A stretch of 64,000 nucleotides of DNA from an uncultured Planctomycetaceae bacterium (GCA_963976765.1 CAXBME010000006.1:248001-312000); one strand, 5' to 3'; shown: positions 2 to 60,407, counted from the first letter of the stretch. Notes: generated by a model from the letters alone, not told the origin. A program made the numbers and translations.

Positions 2-2074
2 CGCAAGTCCTGGGAAAAAATTCTGGGCATGTTGGAAATCGGAGCGATGCCTCCGGCAGATATGGAACAGCCGCCGGAAGAACTTCGAAACGAACTGACC
101 GCTTGGCTGGAAGACAAGCTCTTCAATCTGGACTGCGAACTTATCGACGACCCTGGCCGAGTGACCGTACGGCGTCTGAACCGCGTCGAGTATCGCAACA
201 CAATTCGAGATCTGCTGGCTGTCGACTTTGATCCGACTCAGAACTTTCCGTCGGACGACGTCGGCTACGGATTTGACAACATCGGAGACGTGCTGTCGTT
301 GTCGCCGTTGCTGATGGAAAAATACCTTGACGCCGCCGAGACGATTACCGCCCAGGCGATTCCAGTTGTGACCGCAGACGATCTTCGCACGACGATTGAT
401 TCTCGACGACTGAAGTCAAAACCGCAGGTTGGACAGCAAGGCGGGTTTATGACCGTCGCCAGCCGAGCCGATATCTGGACGGACTACGATGCTCCGCTGG
501 ACGGTGAATATGAAATCGATATCCGTGCGAAGGCGAATCAGTTCGGCAAAGAACTTGCGAAGATGGAACTTCGAGTTGACGGCAAGGTGGTGCGCACGTT
601 CGACGTGAAGGGCGAAATGAAGGCAGACGACTATGTTCACAAAATGCGGTTGAACGCCGGTCAGCACAAAATTCTGGTGACGTTTACCAACGACGAATAC
701 GTCGCGAAGAAAGGCGACCGAAATCTGTTTGTCGGGCGGTTTGCAATCACGCGACCGGCAAATAAGTCGAAACTGAACAAAGTCATCCAGCATTGGCCAG
801 GGCAGGGCAAGGGGATTCGTGACGCAGCAACGGCGACCTTGACGCCGCTGATCAAGCGAGCGTTCCGCGGCCCGATCACCGATGACGAAGTCAGCCCGTT
901 TGTCGACATCGTGGAAATGGCGACAGGCGATGGCGAACTCTTCGAGCAGGGAATTCAGTATGCTCTTCAGGCGGTGCTGGTGTCGCCGAGGTTTCTTTTC
1001 CGCATCGAAACTGACGGTCGCCCCAACGACCCGATGGCCGAGAGACCGGTCACTGACTACGAACTCGCCTCGCGGCTATCGTACTTTCTGTGGAGCAGCA
1101 TGCCGGACGAAGAACTTTCTGGTCTGGCCGAACGTGGCAAACTTCGCGACGCCAATGTGTTGAAGAGTCAGGTCACGCGGATGCTCAATGATTCGAAGTC
1201 GCGAGCACTGGTCGACAACTTTGCGGGGCAGTGGCTGAACCTGGCCATGCTTGACGAGCTGGTTCCCGACCCGAACGTCTTTCCGGATTTCGACTCTGCT
1301 CTTCGAAACGCCATGAAGCAGGAATCTCTGCTGCTTTTCGAAACGGTCATGCGGGAAAACCGCAGCGTGTTGGATTTTCTCGACGCCGATTTCACGTATA
1401 TGAACGGTCGCCTCGCAAAGCATTACGGTCGTGACGGAGTCAAAGGCGATCAGTTTCAGAAGGTCTCACTGGAAAAAGGCCGTCGCGCGGGCATCCTGAC
1501 TCACGCCAGCATTCTGACGCTGACCAGCAACCCGGAACGAACATCACCGGTCAAACGTGGTAAGTGGATCATGGAGAACATCCTGGGGGAAACTCCACCA
1601 CCTCCGCCGCCGGGAGTGCCCGAGCTGGAAGAAACGGCGAAGAACAATCCGAACTTCACGCTGCGTGAGCAACTGAAAATCCACCGAGCCGATCCTGGCT
1701 GCGCCTCGTGCCACAGGACGATGGACGTTCTGGGATTCGGATTCGAGAACTTCGACGCGACTGGCCGCTGGCGAGACAAAGACGGCAACCACGAAATTGA
1801 TCCGGCGGGCGAACTGCCGACCGGCGATTCGTTTTCCAGTCCAACCGAACTCGTCGCGATTCTGAAGAACCGCCAAGTGGATTTTGCCCGTTGCCTGTCG
1901 GAAAAAATGCTGACCTACGCACTGGGGAGGGGTCTTGAGTATTATGACCGCTGTGCGACCGACGAAATTCTTCAGCGACTCAGTGCTAACAACTATCACT
2001 TTTCGGAACTCGTGCTGGGAATTGTCACCAGCAAGCCGTTCCAGAAACGCCGCGGAGATGGAGAACGAGAATGA
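2..2074 (+). CDS. DUF1592/DUF1588/DUF1587/DUF1595/DUF1585 planctomycete cytochrome c domain protein (5' truncated by window)
   Basis: RRLNRVEYRNTIRDLL, YELASRLSYFLWSSMPD, TSPVKRGKWI, heme motif CASCH, YALGRGL. The insert FTNDEY..DRNLFV resembles a CBM60-like module. The frame is open back to position 2. Confidence 0.9.
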   Translation, partial: RKSWEKILGMLEIGAMPPADMEQPPEELRNELTAWLEDKLFNLDCELIDDPGRVTVRRLNRVEYRNTIRDLLAVDFDPTQNFPSDDVGYGFDNIGDVLSLSPLLMEKYLDAAETITAQAIPVVTADDLRTTIDSRRLKSKPQVGQQGGFMTVASRADIWTDYDAPLDGEYEIDIRAKANQFGKELAKMELRVDGKVVRTFDVKGEMKADDYVHKMRLNAGQHKILVTFTNDEYVAKKGDRNLFVGRFAITRPANKSKLNKVIQHWPGQGKGIRDAATATLTPLIKRAFRGPITDDEVSPFVDIVEMATGDGELFEQGIQYALQAVLVSPRFLFRIETDGRPNDPMAERPVTDYELASRLSYFLWSSMPDEELSGLAERGKLRDANVLKSQVTRMLNDSKSRALVDNFAGQWLNLAMLDELVPDPNVFPDFDSALRNAMKQESLLLFETVMRENRSVLDFLDADFTYMNGRLAKHYGRDGVKGDQFQKVSLEKGRRAGILTHASILTLTSNPERTSPVKRGKWIMENILGETPPPPPPGVPELEETAKNNPNFTLREQLKIHRADPGCASCHRTMDVLGFGFENFDATGRWRDKDGNHEIDPAGELPTGDSFSSPTELVAILKNRQVDFARCLSEKMLTYALGRGLEYYDRCATDEILQRLSANNYHFSELVLGIVTSKPFQKRRGDGERE

Positions 2075-3426
2075 CAGCCCACATTCGCAAACTGAATCAA
2101 CTTTCCCGCCGAACGATCCTGCGAGGCGTCGGCGCGACGATGAGCCTTCCCCTTCTGGAAGCCATGCTTTCGAACAATGGCCTTGCGGCTGGAGCGTCCA
2201 GCGAGGCACCGCTACGAACGGCGTACGTCTTCTTCCCCAACGGCGCTATCATGCCGGATTGGACTCCGAAGAGCGAAGGAGAGAACTTCGAATTCTCGAA
2301 AACGCTGAAACCTCTGGAGCCGTTCAAAAGCAGCCTGAACGTGATCAGTGGGCTGGCTCAGGACAATGGTCGCGCAAAGGGCGACGGCGCTGGCGACCAC
2401 GCCCGGTCGGCATCGACATTCCTGACCGGAGCACACCCGGTTAAGACAGCCGGATCGGACATTAAGGTAGGCATCTCGGTCGACCAGTTCGCGGCTCAGC
2501 AGGTCGGGAAAGAAACACGGCTGCCGTCACTGGAAGTTGGCCTCGAATCCGGTCGAACCGCTGGCAGTTGCGACTCCGGTTACAGTTGCGCGTACTCATC
2601 GACGATCAGCTGGAAGACCGAGCGCACGCCGATGCCGGTTGAAATCAACCCGAAACTGGTCTTTGATCGCCTCTTCAGTTCTTCGAATGGTTCGCCGCAG
2701 GAACGCGCCAAACGAGCAAAGTATCGCCGCAGTATTCTCGACGTCGTCGCAGGCGATGCTCAGCGTTTGAGCAGGAACCTTGGCAAGACTGACCAGCACA
2801 AGATCGACGAATACTTCACCAGCGTCCGTGAGATTGAACAGCGCATCGGTCAGGCAGAACAGTCAGCGAAGCTGGAAACGCCTGACTTTGAAATTCCGGA
2901 TGGAATTCCCAAAGATCTCGCCGAGCATTCGCGGCTGATGTACGACCTGATGCTTCTGGCCTTTCGAACGGACAGCACCCGCATCGCGACGATGATGCTG
3001 GCAACCGAGGGCAGCAACCGCAGCTATCCCTGGGTCGGCGTCAACAGTGGTCACCATTCGCTGTCGCACCATCGTGATGATAAGCAGAAGGTTGCCGACC
3101 TGCAGAAGATCGACAACTTCCACGTCACGCAGTTTGCTTACTTCCTGAAGCGGCTCAGCGAGACGAAAGACGGCAACGGCAGCCTGCTGGACCATTCAAT
3201 GATCGTGCTTGGCAGCGGCCTGGGAGACGGCAATCGTCATCGTCACGATGAGCTGCCGATCGTTGTTGCCGGCGGTGGTTCGGGAACGGTCAAAAACGGT
3301 CGCCATATCCGCCTTAAGAAGGAAACGCCGTTGAACAACCTGTTCCTGTCGATGCTCCAGCGGATGGACGTCAAAACGAACTCCTTCGGCGACAGCGACG
3401 GTCCGCTGAAAGAGATTGATGCCTGA
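2071..3426 (+). CDS. DUF1552 (HXXSHH) domain protein
   Basis: Tat-like SRRTILRGVG, CDSGYSCAY, GHHSLSHH; ATGA overlap with the upstream DUF1592 gene, its usual partner. Confidence 0.9.
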   Translation: MTAHIRKLNQLSRRTILRGVGATMSLPLLEAMLSNNGLAAGASSEAPLRTAYVFFPNGAIMPDWTPKSEGENFEFSKTLKPLEPFKSSLNVISGLAQDNGRAKGDGAGDHARSASTFLTGAHPVKTAGSDIKVGISVDQFAAQQVGKETRLPSLEVGLESGRTAGSCDSGYSCAYSSTISWKTERTPMPVEINPKLVFDRLFSSSNGSPQERAKRAKYRRSILDVVAGDAQRLSRNLGKTDQHKIDEYFTSVREIEQRIGQAEQSAKLETPDFEIPDGIPKDLAEHSRLMYDLMLLAFRTDSTRIATMMLATEGSNRSYPWVGVNSGHHSLSHHRDDKQKVADLQKIDNFHVTQFAYFLKRLSETKDGNGSLLDHSMIVLGSGLGDGNRHRHDELPIVVAGGGSGTVKNGRHIRLKKETPLNNLFLSMLQRMDVKTNSFGDSDGPLKEIDA

Positions 3427-49255: not shown

Positions 49256-49259
49256 GAAG

Positions 49260-49306
49260 CGACCCCGACGGGACTTGAACCCGCAACCTCCGGATCGACA
49301 GTCCGG
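49260..49306 (-). pseudogene. 3' fragment of tRNA-Asp(GTC), probable att site
   Basis: Minus strand CCGGA-CTGTCGA-TCCGG AGGTT GCGGG-TTCAAGT-CCCGT CGGGGTC G gives the anticodon arm, T arm, 3' acceptor strand and G73; no D arm or 5' acceptor strand upstream. Confidence 0.88.
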
Positions 49307-49945
49307 AAACAGACTATGAGCACCGGAGAATGGTTCCGGGCGTCAACGCTTTCAGCAAGTGCGGTGCCATTCCCATCCGCGGGAATCTGAGCCACTCAAC
49401 AGCCACTGTCCAGCATGTTCCGGGATTTCAGAATTGACGACCTGTTTAGGGTCGCTAAGTTCGCCGTCACGAGAAAAGTCGACGAGCCACGAGACACAAC
49501 GCTGAGACCCGGTTGCTTCCGGGAGAGTTGACCAGGCATGGTCGCTCGATCTTCAGTCGCGGTTGACCGGTTCGTCAAGCAGATGAATCGAGTCCCGCTG
49601 ACGTCCTGCTGTTGAATCCATGAAGCTGTCGGTTGCAGTGATTCTGTGGCCACCGTTTTGTGAATTTCAGCCCGCTGTCGTTTGCTCGACTCACACGAAT
49701 TGCGTCCCTCACTTCAGATTCCGCCAGGGATCACTCGTGAGGTATTTGCTGGCCGACATCGTGGAAGTGTGACAGGTCTTGCACTCAGGATCTGCGTGCC
49801 TTCACTGCATGGTTGCCCGCACAGTTATCACGTGATCAGGAGCGGCGACGCATGTTCGCTAATCGGATGGAGTTTCCAGGTATTCACAGGTCGACGTTGA
49901 TGGGGGATTTTCCCACGGCGTTTATCTACACCAATGGAGGCTCAA

Positions 49946-51103
49946 ATGACGGCACTGAAGATCTTTTCCGGCGACGACGAAAGTCAGTCCTGGCGTCGAT
50001 TGTTGAATCTGCCGCCCAATGCGTATCTGCGGCTGCGGGAATACTACGAACGATTCATGGAGCCGGCTCCGCAACGTCGCAAGTTCAGCAGGTCAACACC
50101 GCAGGCGTACCTGACGTCAATCGGTCGCTGGGAACAGTTCGGGACCTCCGAGTTGAAGCTCTGGGAGACGGATCAGTTTGGCCGAATGATGTGGAAGCCA
50201 CTGAATTCACAGACTCCGCAATCAGTGAACGATCCACCGATCGGGATTGTCATCGACGACGATCTGGTCGCATTCCAGAACGCGATGCTGGACGCCGGGT
50301 TTCCTGTGTCGACGGTCAACACCACACGCCGCCACCTGCTGCCGATCTTCAATCTGGCGGCGCCTCGCAGCGAGCGCGGTGCTGGCCGTGGAGATTTGCT
50401 GGTCCGTCCATTCTGTCCAATACTCGACGAAGAAGTTGTGCAGAAGCTGATTCCCACCGAGGAAGAAATGACGGCCTTCTTCAAAGCGACTTCTCAGGCG
50501 AAGTGGCCGATTTCGAACGACTGGCCAGCGTCTCACTGGTGGCAGGCGTTGATTGTGCTGCTGTGCAACTACGGGCTGGGTTGTGCGGACTGGAAGCGTC
50601 TCGAATGGGACGAACACGTCATCGAGAACTGCTCACTGCTCAAGTATGTCCGCTACAAGACTCGAAGAAAGCGGAAGCACCCGGTGCTGTTCGAGATCAA
50701 TGCGACGACCAGGTGGTATCTGAATCGGATTCGATCAGAAACGATGATTCGAAATGGCAAGTCCCGGATCTTCTGTTCGGCACAGTCGAAGACCTGCTTC
50801 AAAAACGAGTGGAATCGTCTCGTCGAACTGGCGGGAGTCTCCTGCAAGGAGAAGAAGTCAGACGGCAAAACGTACGAAGAGTTCAGCCGCCATGCGATTC
50901 GTCGATTCTGCAATCAGTACATGAACGATCATGCTCCCGGCAAGCCGGGAGAGTGGCTGCTGAACCATGCCTTCACGACAGACAACGTTGTGAATCATCG
51001 CAGTTACAGTCGCATCTATCAGCCGCCTCAGAGCGTGACGGATGCACTGCACTCGGTCGAGCAGCTGCCGATCTTCCTTCAGACGATGCAGGAGGCGGCG
51101 TAG
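49946..51103 (+). CDS. Tyrosine recombinase/integrase-family protein with atypical box I
   Basis: SD GGAGG; core-binding STVNTTRRHL, box I YGLGCAD..L.W, HAIR (HxxR), LLNH, candidate nucleophile Tyr in HRSY. Confidence 0.8.
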   Translation: MTALKIFSGDDESQSWRRLLNLPPNAYLRLREYYERFMEPAPQRRKFSRSTPQAYLTSIGRWEQFGTSELKLWETDQFGRMMWKPLNSQTPQSVNDPPIGIVIDDDLVAFQNAMLDAGFPVSTVNTTRRHLLPIFNLAAPRSERGAGRGDLLVRPFCPILDEEVVQKLIPTEEEMTAFFKATSQAKWPISNDWPASHWWQALIVLLCNYGLGCADWKRLEWDEHVIENCSLLKYVRYKTRRKRKHPVLFEINATTRWYLNRIRSETMIRNGKSRIFCSAQSKTCFKNEWNRLVELAGVSCKEKKSDGKTYEEFSRHAIRRFCNQYMNDHAPGKPGEWLLNHAFTTDNVVNHRSYSRIYQPPQSVTDALHSVEQLPIFLQTMQEAA

Positions 51104-51237
51104 GCGGCTCACGTGTGAATCCAATGGAAGCGTCGGAACCGCGAGCGTCGGCCCACGCTCGCAGCGACAGAGCAGGTCAGGGTTCATCCTCTTCATGCCT
51201 CCGGCCTGCTCTGTCTTCGTTTTCCCGGAGTAGTGTC

Positions 51238-51396
51238 ATGCAGAAGTTCATGCGTCACGCGAGGCTCTGGCTGTCACTGCCCGTGCATCTGATAGCGTTG
51301 ATTTTCTTTGCCATCGCCACGGGAGTGATGGCCTTATCGGAACTGATCGCCGCATCCAAGCCGCCACCTTCCAGGAAGCAGGTACAGGCGGAATGA
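51238..51396 (+). CDS. Small membrane protein
   Basis: GGAG upstream of ATG; hydrophobic segment LSLPVHLIALIFFAIATGVMAL; also forms the 3' end of the long 49852-51396 frame. Confidence 0.5.
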   Translation: MQKFMRHARLWLSLPVHLIALIFFAIATGVMALSELIAASKPPPSRKQVQAE

Positions 51397-51504
51397 CCGA
51401 CCACTGATCCGCCGCTTTCAGTTTTCTCAAGAAATCAATGACCTTCTGCGTGGAACGTACGCGCACAGTCAATCTTCTTTTCCAGGTATCAGGAGTGCTT
51501 TCTG

Positions 51505-51687
51505 ATGTCTTCTGCGTTTGAACTTGGCGACTGGCTGCGGATTCATGAGAGGCGAATCAGTCTGGCCAAGGACTTGATTCTGGCCAAAGAGACGGGAACG
51601 CCATCGCAATTGAGAACCAGTTTTCAGGGGTTGCTGACTCGCTGTTCGAATCGATCGGCGATGGATGTGCGCTTCAGGCGGAACTGA
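51505..51687 (+). CDS. Hypothetical phage protein
   Basis: AGGAG SD, 60 aa, co-directional with the early operon. Confidence 0.55.
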   Translation: MSSAFELGDWLRIHERRISLAKDLILAKETGTPSQLRTSFQGLLTRCSNRSAMDVRFRRN

Positions 51688-51810
51688 GTAGCGAGGGCGA
51701 AGTAACGGAGTGAGTCGCGACGGCTGGGACGGAGCCCGGCGAGGGCAAGCCGTCGCGACATGGAGAGAGTCTGGTTTGGGAGAGCCGGACGCAGCGAAAT
51801 GGAGTGAAGC

Positions 51811-52092
51811 ATGCTGGTGGTCACTCGATCGGAAAACGAGACGATCCATATCGGAGAACTGATCGACATCACGATCGTCGCGGTACGTGGCAACAAGGTT
51901 CGAATCGGAATCGATGCGCCAAGGCTGTTGGCGATTTTGCGAGGCGAGCATCTGACTGACGAATCGCTTCTGTCCCGCAAAAAGCTGATTCAGCAAATGA
52001 CATCAGCCGTCGACGTTGAGACCGGTCGACTGGTCGAACTACTCGCCGCAAGTCCGGTCGGTCAGGCCGCCGGAATGGAGGCGACCGCATGA
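51811..52092 (+). CDS. csrA: Carbon storage regulator CsrA homolog (element-encoded)
   Basis: MLVVTRSENETIHIG..I.ITIVAVRGNKVRIGIDAP...ILRGE; RNA-binding Arg6 and the Arg44-equivalent are retained. Confidence 0.88.
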   Translation: MLVVTRSENETIHIGELIDITIVAVRGNKVRIGIDAPRLLAILRGEHLTDESLLSRKKLIQQMTSAVDVETGRLVELLAASPVGQAAGMEATA

Positions 52093-54053
52093 TTTCCGTC
52101 GGCACCGAAATCTACATCCGTCCCGAACACGGTATAGACGGCGCTAGCGGAGCAATCTGGGGCAGACTGACTGTCTCCGAAATGGGCGAGGTCAGTCCTG
52201 GCCAGTGGATGGTCGACTTGAGCCGTCGTTGCCAGGACGGTGTGATCCGCCGAGTCGTCAGCGGACTGCCATTTCCATTCACGGCTTCAGCAAACGGCAG
52301 ACGCAGTGACGGCACCTCGAATGTTGCCGCCGCGAATGCGGAGTTGCAGCGGAATAATCCGCAGTTGAGCATTCAGCTGCAGCGGTTCCGCGAACTGGCC
52401 AAAGATCGAAAGGAACTGCGACATGCAGCTGCCGACGCTGAATCATCTGATGCACACGATCGGCAACACTCAGCTCCAGGCGACCTGGTGGTGTCTCGAA
52501 CACAAGGTCTGGCAACGAATGGATGCAGCCGAGTTCCTGTTGGGCCATCCACCGAATCGGACGATTCCGCAGGCCACGTACGACCTGTGGCTGAACGGGA
52601 TTTACAAGGAGTACGTGGCGACGATCAAAGCTCAGTCGCAACTCTGGCAGCCGGGCACGTCGTCATCGTTGACCTGATGAACGTGCTGGTGGCGGCGTAT
52701 CACGTCGGGCAGAAAAACCAGGTTCATGCGGTGCGGAGCTTACTGGGAACTGTGCGGCAACTGATCGAAAAGCTGAAGCCGGAAACGCTGCTGTTTGCGG
52801 CGGAAGGCGGCCATGGTTTTCGGCGAAACATCTTCCCGGAATACAAGGCGACTCGACCGGAAACCGAGCCGCTGCTGAAAGATCAGATCAAGCTGGCTCA
52901 CGACGCACTGACGGCAATCGGCTGGCCGGTCCTGTCGTCAGCCGGTTACGAAGACGACGACGTACTGGCGACAGTTGCCGAGCGGTGCAAGGCGAACGGT
53001 GTGCCATGCACTGTAGTGACCACTGACAAGGACATGCTTCAGCTGCTGCCCATCTGCCGGATTTATCACCAGCAGAAAAAGCGACTCGTCACCAGCGACG
53101 ACGTTCAGAAAAAATACAACATCGGTGCCGGCCAGATGGGCGACCTGCTGTCACTGTGGGGCGACAGGATCGACAACGTACCTGGCGTGCCTGGGATCGG
53201 GAAGGTCAAGGCGGCTGAACTACTGAACGAGTTTGAGAATCTCGACGCCATACTCGTTTCAGCCATCGCCCACGATCACGGCAAATCGTCGATGTGGGCC
53301 AAACTGAAAGAGCATCGCAAACAAGCCCTGCTCAGCCGACGGCTGGTTGACCTGCAACACAACGTTCCACTTGCGGACGGCTGGCAGGTTGCGCGAGCCA
53401 TGCAGCCGCGAGGCACATGGGTCGACTCGCTGCGAGCGATGAGTCTGGGTGCCGTCGTCAACGGTCTTAGTGACGCGTTTCAATCGGCTGGCCAGTTGCC
53501 AGCATCACAGCAAGAACCTCAAAGGAGTGACGGCCATGCCGACTTATTTTCCCGACGACCTGCAACGTCGAGCCGAACTGGCAACGAGACGCGATCAGAT
53601 CAAACGCACGCTGCTGATTCTGGGCGTGTGGCAGACGTGGATGATCGATCCGAAAACGGCGTGCAGGCATCTGGGATTGCCGGTCAAGTCGGACCAGAAA
53701 CCAGAGCAGCTTCACAACCTGTTGAGCGAGTTTCAGCGGGAGGTGAGAGGCCAGATCCAACTGACACAGTCCGTCCAGCTTTCATTGGAGCTTGTGTCGA
53801 TCTGGGTTTCGAACTGACCGGCGGTCCGGATCAATTCAACAACTGGACAGCCACATATGCCGGCCAGCGATTCATCCTGCATGGGCATCCGAAGTGCCAG
53901 CAGATCACAGCCATTGACACGGGAAACAGTCACCCCCTGGCGGAGTTCAAGGAGCGAGCCAATGCGACGACGTCCGAGACCAGACCCACATGGTCGCCCA
54001 GCGGCGAGCTGGCTGAGGATCCAGCCCAACCACTGGCACACTCAAATTGCTGA
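52089..54053 (+). CDS. Long ORF containing a central 5'-3' exonuclease (PolA-N/FEN, PIN + H3TH) domain
   Basis: VIVD, FRRNIFPEYKATR, GYEDDD, TDKD, GDRIDNVPGVPGIGKVKAAELL; nuclease domain about 52650-53380; true extent of the gene uncertain. Confidence 0.8.
   Translation: MISVGTEIYIRPEHGIDGASGAIWGRLTVSEMGEVSPGQWMVDLSRRCQDGVIRRVVSGLPFPFTASANGRRSDGTSNVAAANAELQRNNPQLSIQLQRFRELAKDRKELRHAAADAESSDAHDRQHSAPGDLVVSRTQGLATNGCSRVPVGPSTESDDSAGHVRPVAERDLQGVRGDDQSSVATLAAGHVVIVDLMNVLVAAYHVGQKNQVHAVRSLLGTVRQLIEKLKPETLLFAAEGGHGFRRNIFPEYKATRPETEPLLKDQIKLAHDALTAIGWPVLSSAGYEDDDVLATVAERCKANGVPCTVVTTDKDMLQLLPICRIYHQQKKRLVTSDDVQKKYNIGAGQMGDLLSLWGDRIDNVPGVPGIGKVKAAELLNEFENLDAILVSAIAHDHGKSSMWAKLKEHRKQALLSRRLVDLQHNVPLADGWQVARAMQPRGTWVDSLRAMSLGAVVNGLSDAFQSAGQLPASQQEPQRSDGHADLFSRRPATSSRTGNETRSDQTHAADSGRVADVDDRSENGVQASGIAGQVGPETRAASQPVERVSAGGERPDPTDTVRPAFIGACVDLGFELTGGPDQFNNWTATYAGQRFILHGHPKCQQITAIDTGNSHPLAEFKERANATTSETRPTWSPSGELAEDPAQPLAHSNC
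52423..52677 (+). CDS. Hypothetical protein nested (+1 frame) in the exonuclease ORF
   Basis: GAAAGGAA SD 7 nt before ATG; globular-looking composition where the host frame is low-complexity. Confidence 0.5.
   Translation: MQLPTLNHLMHTIGNTQLQATWWCLEHKVWQRMDAAEFLLGHPPNRTIPQATYDLWLNGIYKEYVATIKAQSQLWQPGTSSSLT
53536..53817 (+). CDS. Hypothetical protein nested (+1 frame) in the exonuclease ORF
   Basis: Strong SD AAAGGAG 8 nt before ATG; resembles the 52423 ORF by eye. Confidence 0.55.
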   Translation: MPTYFPDDLQRRAELATRRDQIKRTLLILGVWQTWMIDPKTACRHLGLPVKSDQKPEQLHNLLSEFQREVRGQIQLTQSVQLSLELVSIWVSN

Positions 54054-54264
54054 CGCCGGGAATGGTCTGCTGATTGACTGCCCAACGCATCACTGCGACG
54101 GGCAGATTTTTACGCTGGCCAGACCGGGACACGATGGCGCGATGATCGTGAGTTGCAGCACCTGTTGCCGGAAGATGGCGGTGATTCTGGTCGGCTGGGA
54201 ATCACCGGCCCCCGCATCACGCGGAGTGAAGCCACCGACTGAAGACGAAACGCTAGGGACTTAA
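53962..54264 (+). CDS. Small putative zinc-ribbon protein
   Basis: AAGGAG SD; CPTHHC...CSTC; overlaps the exonuclease ORF tail by 92 nt. Confidence 0.55.
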   Translation: MRRRPRPDPHGRPAASWLRIQPNHWHTQIADAGNGLLIDCPTHHCDGQIFTLARPGHDGAMIVSCSTCCRKMAVILVGWESPAPASRGVKPPTEDETLGT

Positions 54265-54266
54265 CC

Positions 54267-54866
54267 ATGCCTCGAAATATGAGCTTTGCATTGACCACCG
54301 ATCAGTTCCGCGCTCGGTCGAAGACGGTCACACGACGGATCGGCTGGGCATTCCTGCAGCCGGGCGATCAGGTCATGGGCTGCGTCAAGTGCATGGGCCT
54401 GAAGCCGGGAGAGAAAATCGAAAGGCTCGGCCTGATCGAGATAGTTTCAGTCCGCCGCGAGCCACTCCGCCTGATGCAGGTCGACGAGCATTACGGCAAA
54501 GCAGAAGCCGTCAAGGAAGGCTTTCCGGAAATGAACGGAGCCGACTTCGTTTCCATGCTCTGCAACCATTCGAGCAAACCCGCCGACACTGAGTTTAACC
54601 GCATTGAATTTCAGTACCTCGCTCCGAACGGCGAGCCAGTCTCCGACGAGATTCCTTGCCGCCTGCTCCGATTCAATCCTCGCCGGGCCGCACGCGGCGC
54701 GGAGGCGGCTGAGGTTGAGATCGGCAGCGACGTGCTGTGGATGAGTCGTCGGGATATCAGCCGCAACATCACCGAGTTCGGCCCATTGCCAGGCCTGCTC
54801 GCTGCGCAGTCGGCGTACAACGCCGGAGTGGATTACCCACCCCGGAACACCATGAACCAACCATGA
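54267..54866 (+). CDS. ASCH domain protein with C-terminal extension
   Basis: MSFALT, KTVTRR.GW, SVRREPL, EGFP, RIEFQY resemble phage ASCH/PUA-like proteins. Confidence 0.7.
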   Translation: MPRNMSFALTTDQFRARSKTVTRRIGWAFLQPGDQVMGCVKCMGLKPGEKIERLGLIEIVSVRREPLRLMQVDEHYGKAEAVKEGFPEMNGADFVSMLCNHSSKPADTEFNRIEFQYLAPNGEPVSDEIPCRLLRFNPRRAARGAEAAEVEIGSDVLWMSRRDISRNITEFGPLPGLLAAQSAYNAGVDYPPRNTMNQP

Positions 54867-55318: not shown

Positions 55319-56635
55319 ATGAGTCATCCGGCGAGTAGTTACCCGACAGAGCGACGGAACTGGACCGTTGACGGGCGGAGAAAAATCTTTGCTCTGACGT
55401 TTCAGCGACTGCTGATCAATTCGCAGGCCATCAAGGATCTCGGATTCGAAGGCATTCACCTGCTCACCAGAATTGTTCTGATCGAAGACGAGTTGCGGCA
55501 CAGCCAGCCTGTGAAGATGTGGAACACGGAGGTCGAGCACCTGCTGGGGCTGAAAGTCGATGCTATGCGTCGAGTCCGCCAAGCCTGCATTGATCACGGC
55601 TGGCTGCACTACGTCCCCGGCCGGAAGCGAAAGATCGGTCAGTATTGGGTCACCATTCCCGACGAAGCCGTGCGTGACGAGTGGTTGAATGACGACGCAG
55701 GCGAAGAAATACCCCCGCCCGTCAGCGGGGTAAAGCCGACGGAAAGCCAACACAAAGCTGACGGAAAGCCAACACAAAGCCGCACACCTTCTATTCCTGT
55801 ACCTGATCCAGAAAACTCCTCCTCCACCGTTTCCGATTTCGAAAGCGGTGGAGGAGGAATTTTTGAAGATGATGCCAACGAATCAGCCGTGTCTGAGATG
55901 CTGGCAACGAAACCGGTCGAGTCCGGTTCCGGATCGACAGCCGTGTCTGTTGATTCATCGCGGGATGCGTCTGCCGAGTCGGACGCATCCACAATGGTTC
56001 CGCCCGTGTGCGGAACTGACGAGGTGGCGATCGCCGCCACCATCGAGCGTGTGAAGTCCGAGCACTTCACGAACAGTCTGGCGGCGGACAGGTTCGGCAA
56101 CCGTAAGTTCGGCCTGGCTGACCAGGCAGTCAGAACAGCGATCGCCAGAGGTCACACGACGGCATCCGTCGATGCCATCTGTGATTTCGTGGAATCGCGA
56201 CCCGGCTTCTATGGGGCCGGTGCGGTGTATGTGCGTCTCACGACTGAGGCGTACGTGACTGACGAGCCGCAAGATTCCTGGGCAACGCCAGATCCGGTGG
56301 CGTTCGCAAAATGGAAGCATCGACGGGAGCAGGAAGCCCGCCGAAAACAAGACGCAGCGGCGACAGTCCTGTACCAGCAACGAAAAGAGAAAGAGACAGC
56401 ACCGCTGGTGCAACTCGAAATTCACTGGCCGGCCATCGAGAAGATGAGCACCGATGAAATTCTTGTGATGCTGGCTGGCGAATCGCAAACGCGGAGATAT
56501 TTCACCCGATCAAACTACGATCGGAACGCACCGATGATTCGGACTCGGCTTTTGAAACTCTATGCGGCACAGCAGGAAGTTGTTCACGCGAAGTCCCGAA
56601 GTCCCGAAGAGCAGACTCAAGAGGCAGTCACATGA
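55319..56635 (+). CDS. Putative phage replication initiator (N-terminal winged HTH)
   Basis: LLGL...MRRVRQACIDHGWLHY.PG....GQYWV wHTH-like N-terminus, then a low-complexity linker carrying direct repeats. Confidence 0.6.
   Translation: MSHPASSYPTERRNWTVDGRRKIFALTFQRLLINSQAIKDLGFEGIHLLTRIVLIEDELRHSQPVKMWNTEVEHLLGLKVDAMRRVRQACIDHGWLHYVPGRKRKIGQYWVTIPDEAVRDEWLNDDAGEEIPPPVSGVKPTESQHKADGKPTQSRTPSIPVPDPENSSSTVSDFESGGGGIFEDDANESAVSEMLATKPVESGSGSTAVSVDSSRDASAESDASTMVPPVCGTDEVAIAATIERVKSEHFTNSLAADRFGNRKFGLADQAVRTAIARGHTTASVDAICDFVESRPGFYGAGAVYVRLTTEAYVTDEPQDSWATPDPVAFAKWKHRREQEARRKQDAAATVLYQQRKEKETAPLVQLEIHWPAIEKMSTDEILVMLAGESQTRRYFTRSNYDRNAPMIRTRLLKLYAAQQEVVHAKSRSPEEQTQEAVT
55732..55786 (+). repeat. 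Five tandem 11-bp iteron-like repeats
   Basis: AAAGCCGACGG AAAGCCAACAC AAAGCTGACGG AAAGCCAACAC AAAGCCGCACA. Confidence 0.8.
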
Positions 56636-59126: not shown

Positions 59127-59888
59127 TTATTCAGTGTACAGCTCGTCTTGCAGATAGTTGCGATGTTCGTACAGCGCGTAGCGAAGAGCGTCTTCAGGCA
59201 CGCCTTCCCCCAGAAGCCGGGCGTAGGCATCGCTTTTTCGAGGATGGAGACAAAGGAAACTGAGCGTATCGTAGAACGTGCCGATCGCGATGTGACCGCC
59301 AAAGTGGTCTGAGTTCGCAAAGGCTACATATGGGAATCGAGCCGGAATCAGGCGGTTGGAAAGGTCGCAGGAGTTGTCTCGTGTTCGGGATGCAGTCACT
59401 CGCCCGCCGCGCTGATCAAATTCACGACCGTGAAACAGGTCTGAGAATACTGCTGTCAGTTGTCTCAATTCGTATTCGCACATCCCGAAGAACAGTCGAG
59501 TCAGTGGTTCGTGAACCTCATCATTCTTCCGATCAAGAACCCGGAATCCAACATCAGAGCCACCATCAGGCAAGAGCACGCTGAACTGCTCCATGATCTT
59601 GACCGGCTTATCTGTGTCAAAAGTCCGCTCAAATGAAGAAGTTCGAAACAGGCGGCCACCGGAGAGTTGAATGTACGATTGGCAATCATCGAGCCGCTGC
59701 GACGACCTTCTGTACCTTCGCCGAATAAACTGATCATCATCACCGTCGTAAATCTGGTCGTGAAAGAAGCAGATGCGATCGTCGGCGTAGATGACCGGGT
59801 GGAATCGAATCCCGTCCAGATCCAGATCACGCTCAGCTATTGCCGATCCATCAATGTCATCAAACTTAATTCCTTCGAGACTCGCCAT
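59127..59888 (-). CDS. Hypothetical protein (accessory cargo)
   Basis: 253 aa ORF downstream of the HTH gene; no motif recognised. Confidence 0.65.
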   Translation of the reverse strand: MASLEGIKFDDIDGSAIAERDLDLDGIRFHPVIYADDRICFFHDQIYDGDDDQFIRRRYRRSSQRLDDCQSYIQLSGGRLFRTSSFERTFDTDKPVKIMEQFSVLLPDGGSDVGFRVLDRKNDEVHEPLTRLFFGMCEYELRQLTAVFSDLFHGREFDQRGGRVTASRTRDNSCDLSNRLIPARFPYVAFANSDHFGGHIAIGTFYDTLSFLCLHPRKSDAYARLLGEGVPEDALRYALYEHRNYLQDELYTE

Positions 59889-60158: not shown

Positions 60159-60386
60159 TCACGCTCCCTGTCCCTGTGGAGCGTACAGGTCATAAGCGGC
60201 AGCTGGTGACGGGATTGACTCCCCATCTTCACGCATGCCGGACAGGTGCAACTCGATCGCCTCGCGGATCAGCGAGGCCGCTTCTTCCCGCGTTTTCCCG
60301 ACGGCGACACAGCCGGGCAGGTCAGGGACGTAAGCGCCCCAGTCACTGTCTTCCGACTTTTCGATCACGATCAGATACTGACTCAT
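60159..60386 (-). CDS. hicB: HicB-family antitoxin (short, no DNA-binding domain)
   Basis: Y.IVIEK...WGAYVPDLPGCVAVGKTREEA...IREAIELHL.GM..DGE.IP.P. Confidence 0.92.
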   Translation of the reverse strand: MSQYLIVIEKSEDSDWGAYVPDLPGCVAVGKTREEAASLIREAIELHLSGMREDGESIPSPAAAYDLYAPQGQGA

Positions 60387-60407
60387 TTCTACCAACTCCC
60401 CGCCGGC

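Follow-up and report, generated by a model that had tools for sequence, protein, structure and literature searches.

Small genes apparently nested out of frame in the linkers of a Planctomycetaceae prophage exonuclease

In a 64,000-nucleotide stretch of DNA from an uncultured Planctomycetaceae bacterium (positions 248001-312000 of contig C6; hereafter the window), a prophage exonuclease gene carries a small gene, B or D, out of frame within each of its two linkers, and comparison with relatives indicates that both linkers are likely dual-coding. We consider probable the full model, in which the exonuclease belongs to a prophage, B and D are translated internally and the small genes persist in the linkers; dual coding becomes highly probable if an origin by gene fusion is counted in as well. 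The architecture, the codon signature, the variety of linker genes ("passengers") and the free-standing passenger copies come from comparison, and from the sequences compared we infer that both frames may be translated and how the small genes may have arrived.

The exonuclease gene and its nested frames

The host gene (52089..54053, plus strand, as are all of its parts) begins with an ATG, has GGAGG at 7 nt and is coupled, by an ATGA overlap at its start, to a CsrA-like gene on its 5' side (51811..52092, plus strand). It encodes a 654-aa prophage 5'-3' exonuclease or flap endonuclease (FEN) which comprises, all in one frame, a beta-rich N-domain with two helices (aa 1-119, 52089..52445), a linker, a nuclease core with a FEN/PolI-type fold (aa 189-470, 52653..53498), a second linker and a folded C-domain (aa 561-627, 53769..53969) that lacks a start codon of its own and is common to the related proteins P0002-P0004, P0006 and P0015. 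This is the layout that the initial annotation had read. Structure prediction, which had been proposed as a check, returned a folded N-domain, core and C-domain and predicted disordered linkers: an AlphaFold2 model built on an 89-row family alignment has folded blocks at about aa 1-119, 189-470 and 561-627, and because pLDDT falls below 50 at aa 63-71, 122-183, 474-559 and 629-654, the three long stretches of predicted disorder coincide with B, D and a downstream gene, F.

By domain scores, predicted fold and carboxylates, the host protein is a PolI-type 5'-3' exonuclease. Pfam domains PF02739 (residues 191-343) and PF01367 (residues 348-435) score 112 and 74.7 bits against gathering thresholds of 34.3 and 40, the PHROG match is phrog_107, and the best Foldseek matches of the model are ExoIX (E 2.6e-20, rmsd 2.1), M. 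smegmatis FEN and T5 FEN; the matches in whole-model structure searches were filled by the nuclease. Residues E288, D290, D291, D313, D315, D359 and D362 are invariant in the family alignment and D195 is nearly so, and all are present in the window protein; we take these carboxylates to be the metal-binding or catalytic residues of PolI-type FENs. Assignment as an Xni or DNA polymerase I equivalog was rejected on missed NCBIfam cut-offs (133 vs 261 and 191 vs 720 bits), and the protein also falls under the NCBIfam cut-off of PRK14976. The N-domain matched no Pfam or PHROG family. From what is known of the family, the nuclease is predicted to act in primer or flap processing during phage replication or recombination.

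Wholly inside the host ORF, on the same strand and with an SD-like sequence and start of their own, lie the two +1-frame genes that the initial annotation had placed in the linkers, and both are present as described. B (52423..52677, plus strand; 84 aa, an orphan) has AAGGA (52410..52414, plus strand) 8 nt before its ATG, and D (53536..53817, plus strand; 93 aa, predicted helical) has AAGGAG (53522..53527, plus strand) at the same distance. The earlier statement that the nuclease has no ATG directly before its first catalytic motif also stands: no in-frame ATG occurs between M41 and the catalytic Asp195, and the only start codons up to 60 codons before Asp195 are two SD-less GTGs, 28 and 60 codons away. 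The TGA of B overlaps the ATG of Met197, two codons past Asp195, and one may speculate that re-initiation at Met197 could yield a form of the nuclease lacking Asp195. The third +1 ORF, F (53962..54264, plus strand; 100 aa, Cys/His-rich, AAGGAG at 7 nt), is likewise SD-led, but it overlaps the host tail by just 92 nt, beyond the point where the homologues P0002-P0004 end; F is an ordinary downstream gene with a run-on overlap, not a nested one.

Searches with B returned only itself, with no homologue in 250 other genomes and no Pfam, PHROG or database match; D likewise found only itself in database, Pfam and PHROG searches, as did F in its homologue search. Locus L360, considered as a D homologue, was rejected because it is antisense to another gene. 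A single-sequence fold prediction gives D three helices (pLDDT 72), and structure searches with it produced no clear match (best Z 6.8; no E <0.001). Judged by position alone, B and D are most likely small accessory proteins of the prophage early region.

An assembly frameshift artefact is an extremely improbable source of this layout. The genome is a 95-contig assembly, possibly built from the very data sets that match it, but the X1/X2 contigs are gapless over 52407-52879 and 53073-53627, L030 is letter-identical over 49700-54300, and relatives from other genomes share the layout.

Linkers among relatives

The protein family was drawn from the best 150 matches among 50%-identity representatives, of whose first 97 we picked 89 by eye, with the window protein (P0001) among them and PolA-like and atypical rows set aside. 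Within this family (P0001-P0097), the 654-codon frame represents the complete version of the Planctomycetaceae prophage exonuclease. P0002 (646 aa, 52% identity) has the same three blocks in one frame with diverged linkers. At least 100 residues precede the nuclease in 63 of the 89 proteins and fewer than 30 in 20 of them (boundaries set by regular expression, a few of which are wrong). Several N-domain types are used across the family; that of the window is fused to the nuclease by a short extension in P0015 and P0020 (about 111-117 aa in total), leaving no room for a gene, and its C-domain type is joined in P0006, again without such room. A C-terminal LF followed by at most four residues occurs in 68 of the 89 proteins, the window protein being without it, and the tail resembles what we take to be a sliding-clamp-binding motif; several passengers of the family found at locus L173 end in a similar LF tail.

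All genome matches of the nuclease family fall in the window's own bacterial family, the named relatives being Schlesneria. Eight database entries (P0004, P0006, P0008, P0010, P0012, P0035, P0070, P0086) begin at or just past the first catalytic motif. P0010 and P0012, the latter a 5'-3' exonuclease entry from the cultured species Schlesneria paludicola with a 634-aa cluster mate, P0155, correspond to nested loci, and the other shortened entries may therefore hide nested genes too. A classifier of nested linkers that used proteins only was rejected, as the empty loci L174 and L175 scored 0.22 and 0.18 and the nested L173 scored 0.01.

At the DNA level, a family profile search that scored three candidates per genome found at least 13 loci, spread over 10 of the order's 398 genomes, our own included, and three distinct viral contigs bring the set to 16 distinct loci (L091 duplicates L090, L058 duplicates L178 and L059 duplicates L177); most loci from the wider searches were distant exonucleases and were set aside, L030, L090-L092 and L182 being the ones used. 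The N-domain is present at 14 of the 16 loci, the window included, and in all 14 it is in frame with the nuclease with no stop between them, while L177 and L178 have no N-domain and a nuclease with its own SD-led ATG. Homologues with separate genes and stops in the linkers, which the initial annotation had named as speaking against its reading, did not appear, the N-domain being cut off by a stop at none of the 16 distinct nuclease loci.

Linker 1 holds an SD-led ORF of 79-117 codons at eight of the 14 N-domain loci and none at the other six. The nested ORFs are in the +1 frame at the window, L170, L179, L180, L173, L176 and L092, and in +2 at L171. Only the passengers of L170, L179 and L180 are homologous to one another (E <1e-7), and the eight nested loci therefore hold six dissimilar families. 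Candidates in linker 2 of L170 and L172 are weak (codon log-odds about 0) and were excluded from these counts. Within 60 codons of the catalytic Asp, an in-frame start led by an SD is absent from all eight nested loci and present at one of the six without a passenger and at both loci without an N-domain. In the unrooted nuclease tree, single starred clades contain nested as well as empty loci (L171/L181; L173 and L092 with L174, L175 and L182; L176 with L172 and L090).

These loci bear on the reading that the stretch comprises five separate genes, with the nuclease and C-domain made from weak starts or by -1 frameshifting out of B and D and the long frame incidental. The two SD-less GTGs before Asp195 would serve it, and gene callers often pick it, as in the 20 of 89 family proteins with fewer than 30 residues before the nuclease; however, at least two of these shortened calls, P0010 and P0012, match nested loci, the N-domain is unbroken and in frame at 14 of 14 N-domain nuclease loci, and a slippery heptamer is absent from the final 120 nt of B, the single match near the end of D (53804) lying past the start of the C-domain. 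We judge five separate genes to be very unlikely.

Codon log-odds per codon in the +1 frame are 0.34 for B and 0.29 for D, compared with 0.33 for the nuclease core and -0.06 for the long frame over the nested genes, and G+C by codon position switches to the +1 frame within both linkers. Under genome codon usage, the chance of an open long frame given the nested proteins is 0.064 at B and 0.025 at D (joint 0.0016), and a more cautious shuffle of each gene's own codons gives 0.21 and 0.089 (joint 0.019); as genome background, windows of 80, 90 and 100 codons are open in the -1 frame in 9.7, 7.3 and 5.6% of cases. For dual coding of B and D the 64-kb window alone is suggestive, and the case is carried by the relatives. 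Multiplied over seven passenger families, the open-frame chances come to 1e-9 (genome usage) or 8e-7 (own-codon shuffle), values that are inflated because the nested ORFs were chosen within host frames already open. Four of the 11 nested candidates (L170b, L172b, L092a, L171a) are weak, with log-odds of at most 0.05 or below the host frame.

In a +1 decoding analysis, the residues possible in the +1 linker frame of relatives were scored against B or D, with 100 shuffles each. D gave z values of 6.7 (P0002), 8.2 (P0003) and 3.8 (P0004), with crossed controls at -0.6 and 0.0, although host-frame identity there is 17-24%; this shows common DNA descent with an open host frame and says nothing on which frame is selected. 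For B the scores were weak in P0002 (1.5) and P0003 (2.4), both in matching register, and were 0.2 in P0009 and -1.2 in P0007, so that frame retention by protein-only decoding is seen for D in three of three relatives and for B weakly in two of four and not in the other two. Host codon positions 1 and 2 in linker 2 gave similar counts (67 vs 61 of 119, p 0.52), and the L170/L179/L180 trio is too diverged for a codon-position comparison.

Taken together, the codon and register data weigh on a further reading, in which the long protein alone is made and B and D are remnants in decay or side effects of how the linkers are composed. In recodings that preserve the host protein, the +1 frame stays open in 64-69% of cases, and B and D have no library or database matches, as this reading would predict; against it, an SD and ATG head each linker, +1 codon usage is on a par with that of the nuclease core, the D register is retained in three relatives despite the low host-frame identity, and the passengers of relatives are members of real gene families. 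We regard it as distinctly unlikely.

Prophage context and the integrase frame

The early region of the prophage comprises, in order, a tRNA-Asp copy, the integrase-like gene, csrA, the exonuclease, ParB and a DNA methyltransferase. An att-like 50-bp repeat that copies the 3' part of tRNA-Asp lies at 49257..49306 (minus strand), with its counterpart at 24649-24698 of contig C22, where the full tRNA is found, and by eye 1-24.7 kb of C22 include tape-measure-, portal- and capsid-like ORFs; the prophage may therefore span the end of contig C6 and the start of C22. The region contains no promoter-like site, Rfam family or full tRNA. CsrA-like genes recur in prophage early regions (the window, L175, L357), twice directly 5' of the nuclease, and a translational regulator adjoining nested starts may be relevant. 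Between the early and structural regions, at 59127-59888 and 60159-60395 (minus strand), are an orphan 253-aa gene and a small gene that by eye is HicB-like.

A second long overlap covers the integrase-like gene (49934..51103, plus strand; weak phrog_1 match, SD-led ATG probably at 49946), over which the -1 frame is stop-free from 49813 to 51396 (plus strand; 527 codons from a TTG). Within the gene this frame has no stop in 389 codons, where 15-18 are expected, and none of 5000 recodings scored as low. The integrase at L357, in the same element as nested locus L171, also has no -1 stop in 434 codons (14.7 expected), and its -1 frame extends for 627 codons from stop to stop (1028-2908, minus strand), ending inside a csrA-like start. 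Over 342 codons, the -1 frame is interrupted by 10 stops at L354 and by 12 at L355, so that the frame is open in one of three close relatives; no further integrase relatives were found in viral contigs or 125 more genomes. The -1 products of the window and L357 share no blastp similarity, and the window's -1 ORF ends in a hydrophobic, gene-like segment of 50 residues past the integrase stop.

Runs of at least 330 codons in the -1 frame occur in eight of 2219 long ORFs of the genome (330-457 codons; contigs C2, C8, C21, C22 and C42). They include a recombinase-like gene (C42) and a tape-measure-like gene (C22), and some may be wrong-frame calls. Elsewhere in the element, -1 stops number 16 in ParB, 7 in the nuclease core and 18 in a replication-initiator-like ORF (55319-56635; named by eye, with no family match), which has a long low-complexity middle. 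The open -1 frame is gene-specific, since stop counts are normal in the remaining genes of the element, and the systematic overprinting that the initial annotation had suggested for this element narrows to the nuclease and the integrase.

Origin of the linker frame and comparison with known systems

No passenger matched a Pfam or PHROG family at cut-off, and none was found in the 'phages' set. Four further copies of the L173 passenger occur among 398 genomes, all four with stops in the -1 frame, and viral contigs gave no match to it; the L171 passenger has seven viral copies, five of them distinct, and all seven have a stop in the host-equivalent frame. At L353 (1272-1734), an N-domain gene of the same kind precedes a relative of the passenger shared by L170, L179 and L180, but no nuclease follows, and the host-type frame runs for 103 codons before it meets a stop about 49 codons inside the passenger. 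On this one control locus, the linker frame appears open where a nuclease depends on it and closed where none follows. Free-standing copies thus exist for three passenger families of relatives, and none were found for B and D. Because the inner codons are gene-like and three families occur free-standing with stops, the small genes would be the older and the linker frame derived; classical overprinting, in which a new inner frame arises within an outer gene that is older, was rejected on the gene-like inner codons and the free-standing copies. The true dual coding that had been proposed is supported by comparison at both linkers, with its direction reversed, as the linker is the overprint and the small genes are older.

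The linkers may instead have formed by fusion around neighbours, whereby an N-domain gene, a small gene and a nuclease gene, distinct at first, became joined through the -1 frame of the small gene once a stop and a start had been lost. L353, where the N-domain is a gene of its own ending within the passenger, fits fusion as well as insertion, but may equally represent loss of the nuclease; L177 and L178, whose nuclease has its own SD-ATG and no N-domain, and the multiple N-domain types within the family also point to fusion. Between the two routes, the mixing of nested and empty loci within clades stands on one side and L353 on the other. One and the same N-domain type is found beside differing passengers or beside no passenger at all (L173 and L092 vs L174, L175 and L182), and gene-free joins exist both of N-domain to nuclease (P0015, P0020) and of the C-domain (P0006), all of which argues against fusion, a route that we consider unlikely.

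Under the insertion model that we prefer, one early-region mRNA of the tRNA-Asp-integrated prophage would give three proteins from the stretch that holds the host gene, B and D. Ribosomes starting at 52089, coupled from csrA, would produce the complete exonuclease with its three domains, passing through B and D in the -1 frame as disordered filler, and ribosomes starting at the internal SD-ATG sites would make B and D. The linkers would accept nearly any sequence, length and disorder being what matters; small phage genes arriving by recombination would stay if the frame is kept and stop-free, and selection for a joined nuclease would keep the linker frame open. Given that the -1 frame of this genome lacks stops in 6-10% of stretches of 80-100 codons, an appreciable fraction of small genes could land with no harm to the host gene. 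We lean towards the broader view that the disordered linkers of this exonuclease family are recurrent landing pads: unrelated small genes would be taken up there in another frame, translation would proceed in both frames, and lineages would swap passengers with one another. By similar reasoning, a protein in the -1 frame may span the whole integrase.

Such loci constitute an annotation blind spot, as gene callers retain the inner gene and place the nuclease start at the first catalytic motif or beyond it, hiding the host gene. The member from a cultured species (P0012, Schlesneria paludicola) makes bench work feasible. To our knowledge, proven nested same-strand bacterial genes are few and fixed; the exonuclease family offers many independent nested cases at one site, occupied and empty, together with the L353 control, and makes the origin of gene overlaps directly testable.

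The host protein has its fold, PF02739 and PF01367 and its carboxylates in common with ExoIX, T5 FEN and M. smegmatis FEN, and differs from PolI-type FENs in its extra N- and C-domains on long linkers. Phage genes nested out of frame, as in lambda Rz/Rz1 and phiX174, have fixed partners and an inner frame usually born by overprinting, whereas in the exonuclease family the outer linker would be the derived frame.

According to the accessible part of 10.1101/520783, rnpA/rpmH of Thermus thermophilus and comS in srfAB of Bacillus subtilis were the only bacterial examples known before that study, and there too a whole gene with its own start lies out of frame on the same strand. Those are fixed pairs, whereas here six passenger families occupy one site, with two sites per gene, between folded domains. 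Proteins of the E. coli pangenome with segments from another gene's alternative frame, more often disordered, are described in the portion of PMC8788219 consulted, where 53 such families are phage-associated and full-size out-of-frame integration is put forward as theory; that portion describes no intact SD-led inner gene bridging conserved domains and no passenger exchange. A literature search of mostly non-subscription papers returned no report of this exonuclease family or of exchangeable nested linker genes.

A further parallel is synthetic. In overlapping alternate-frame insertion (OAFI), as outlined in the part of 10.1101/2024.11.07.622342 available, the same layout is engineered and recoded by hand; the exonuclease family loci likewise have a pre-existing gene, its own RBS, a flexible region and a stop-free outer frame, and would be a natural, recurrent case, known here from sequence. 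If this is true, alternate-frame insertion has occurred naturally and repeatedly, a precedent for the engineering method, and the nested genes in these linkers, with unrelated passengers in relatives, look like a natural form of laboratory gene nesting.
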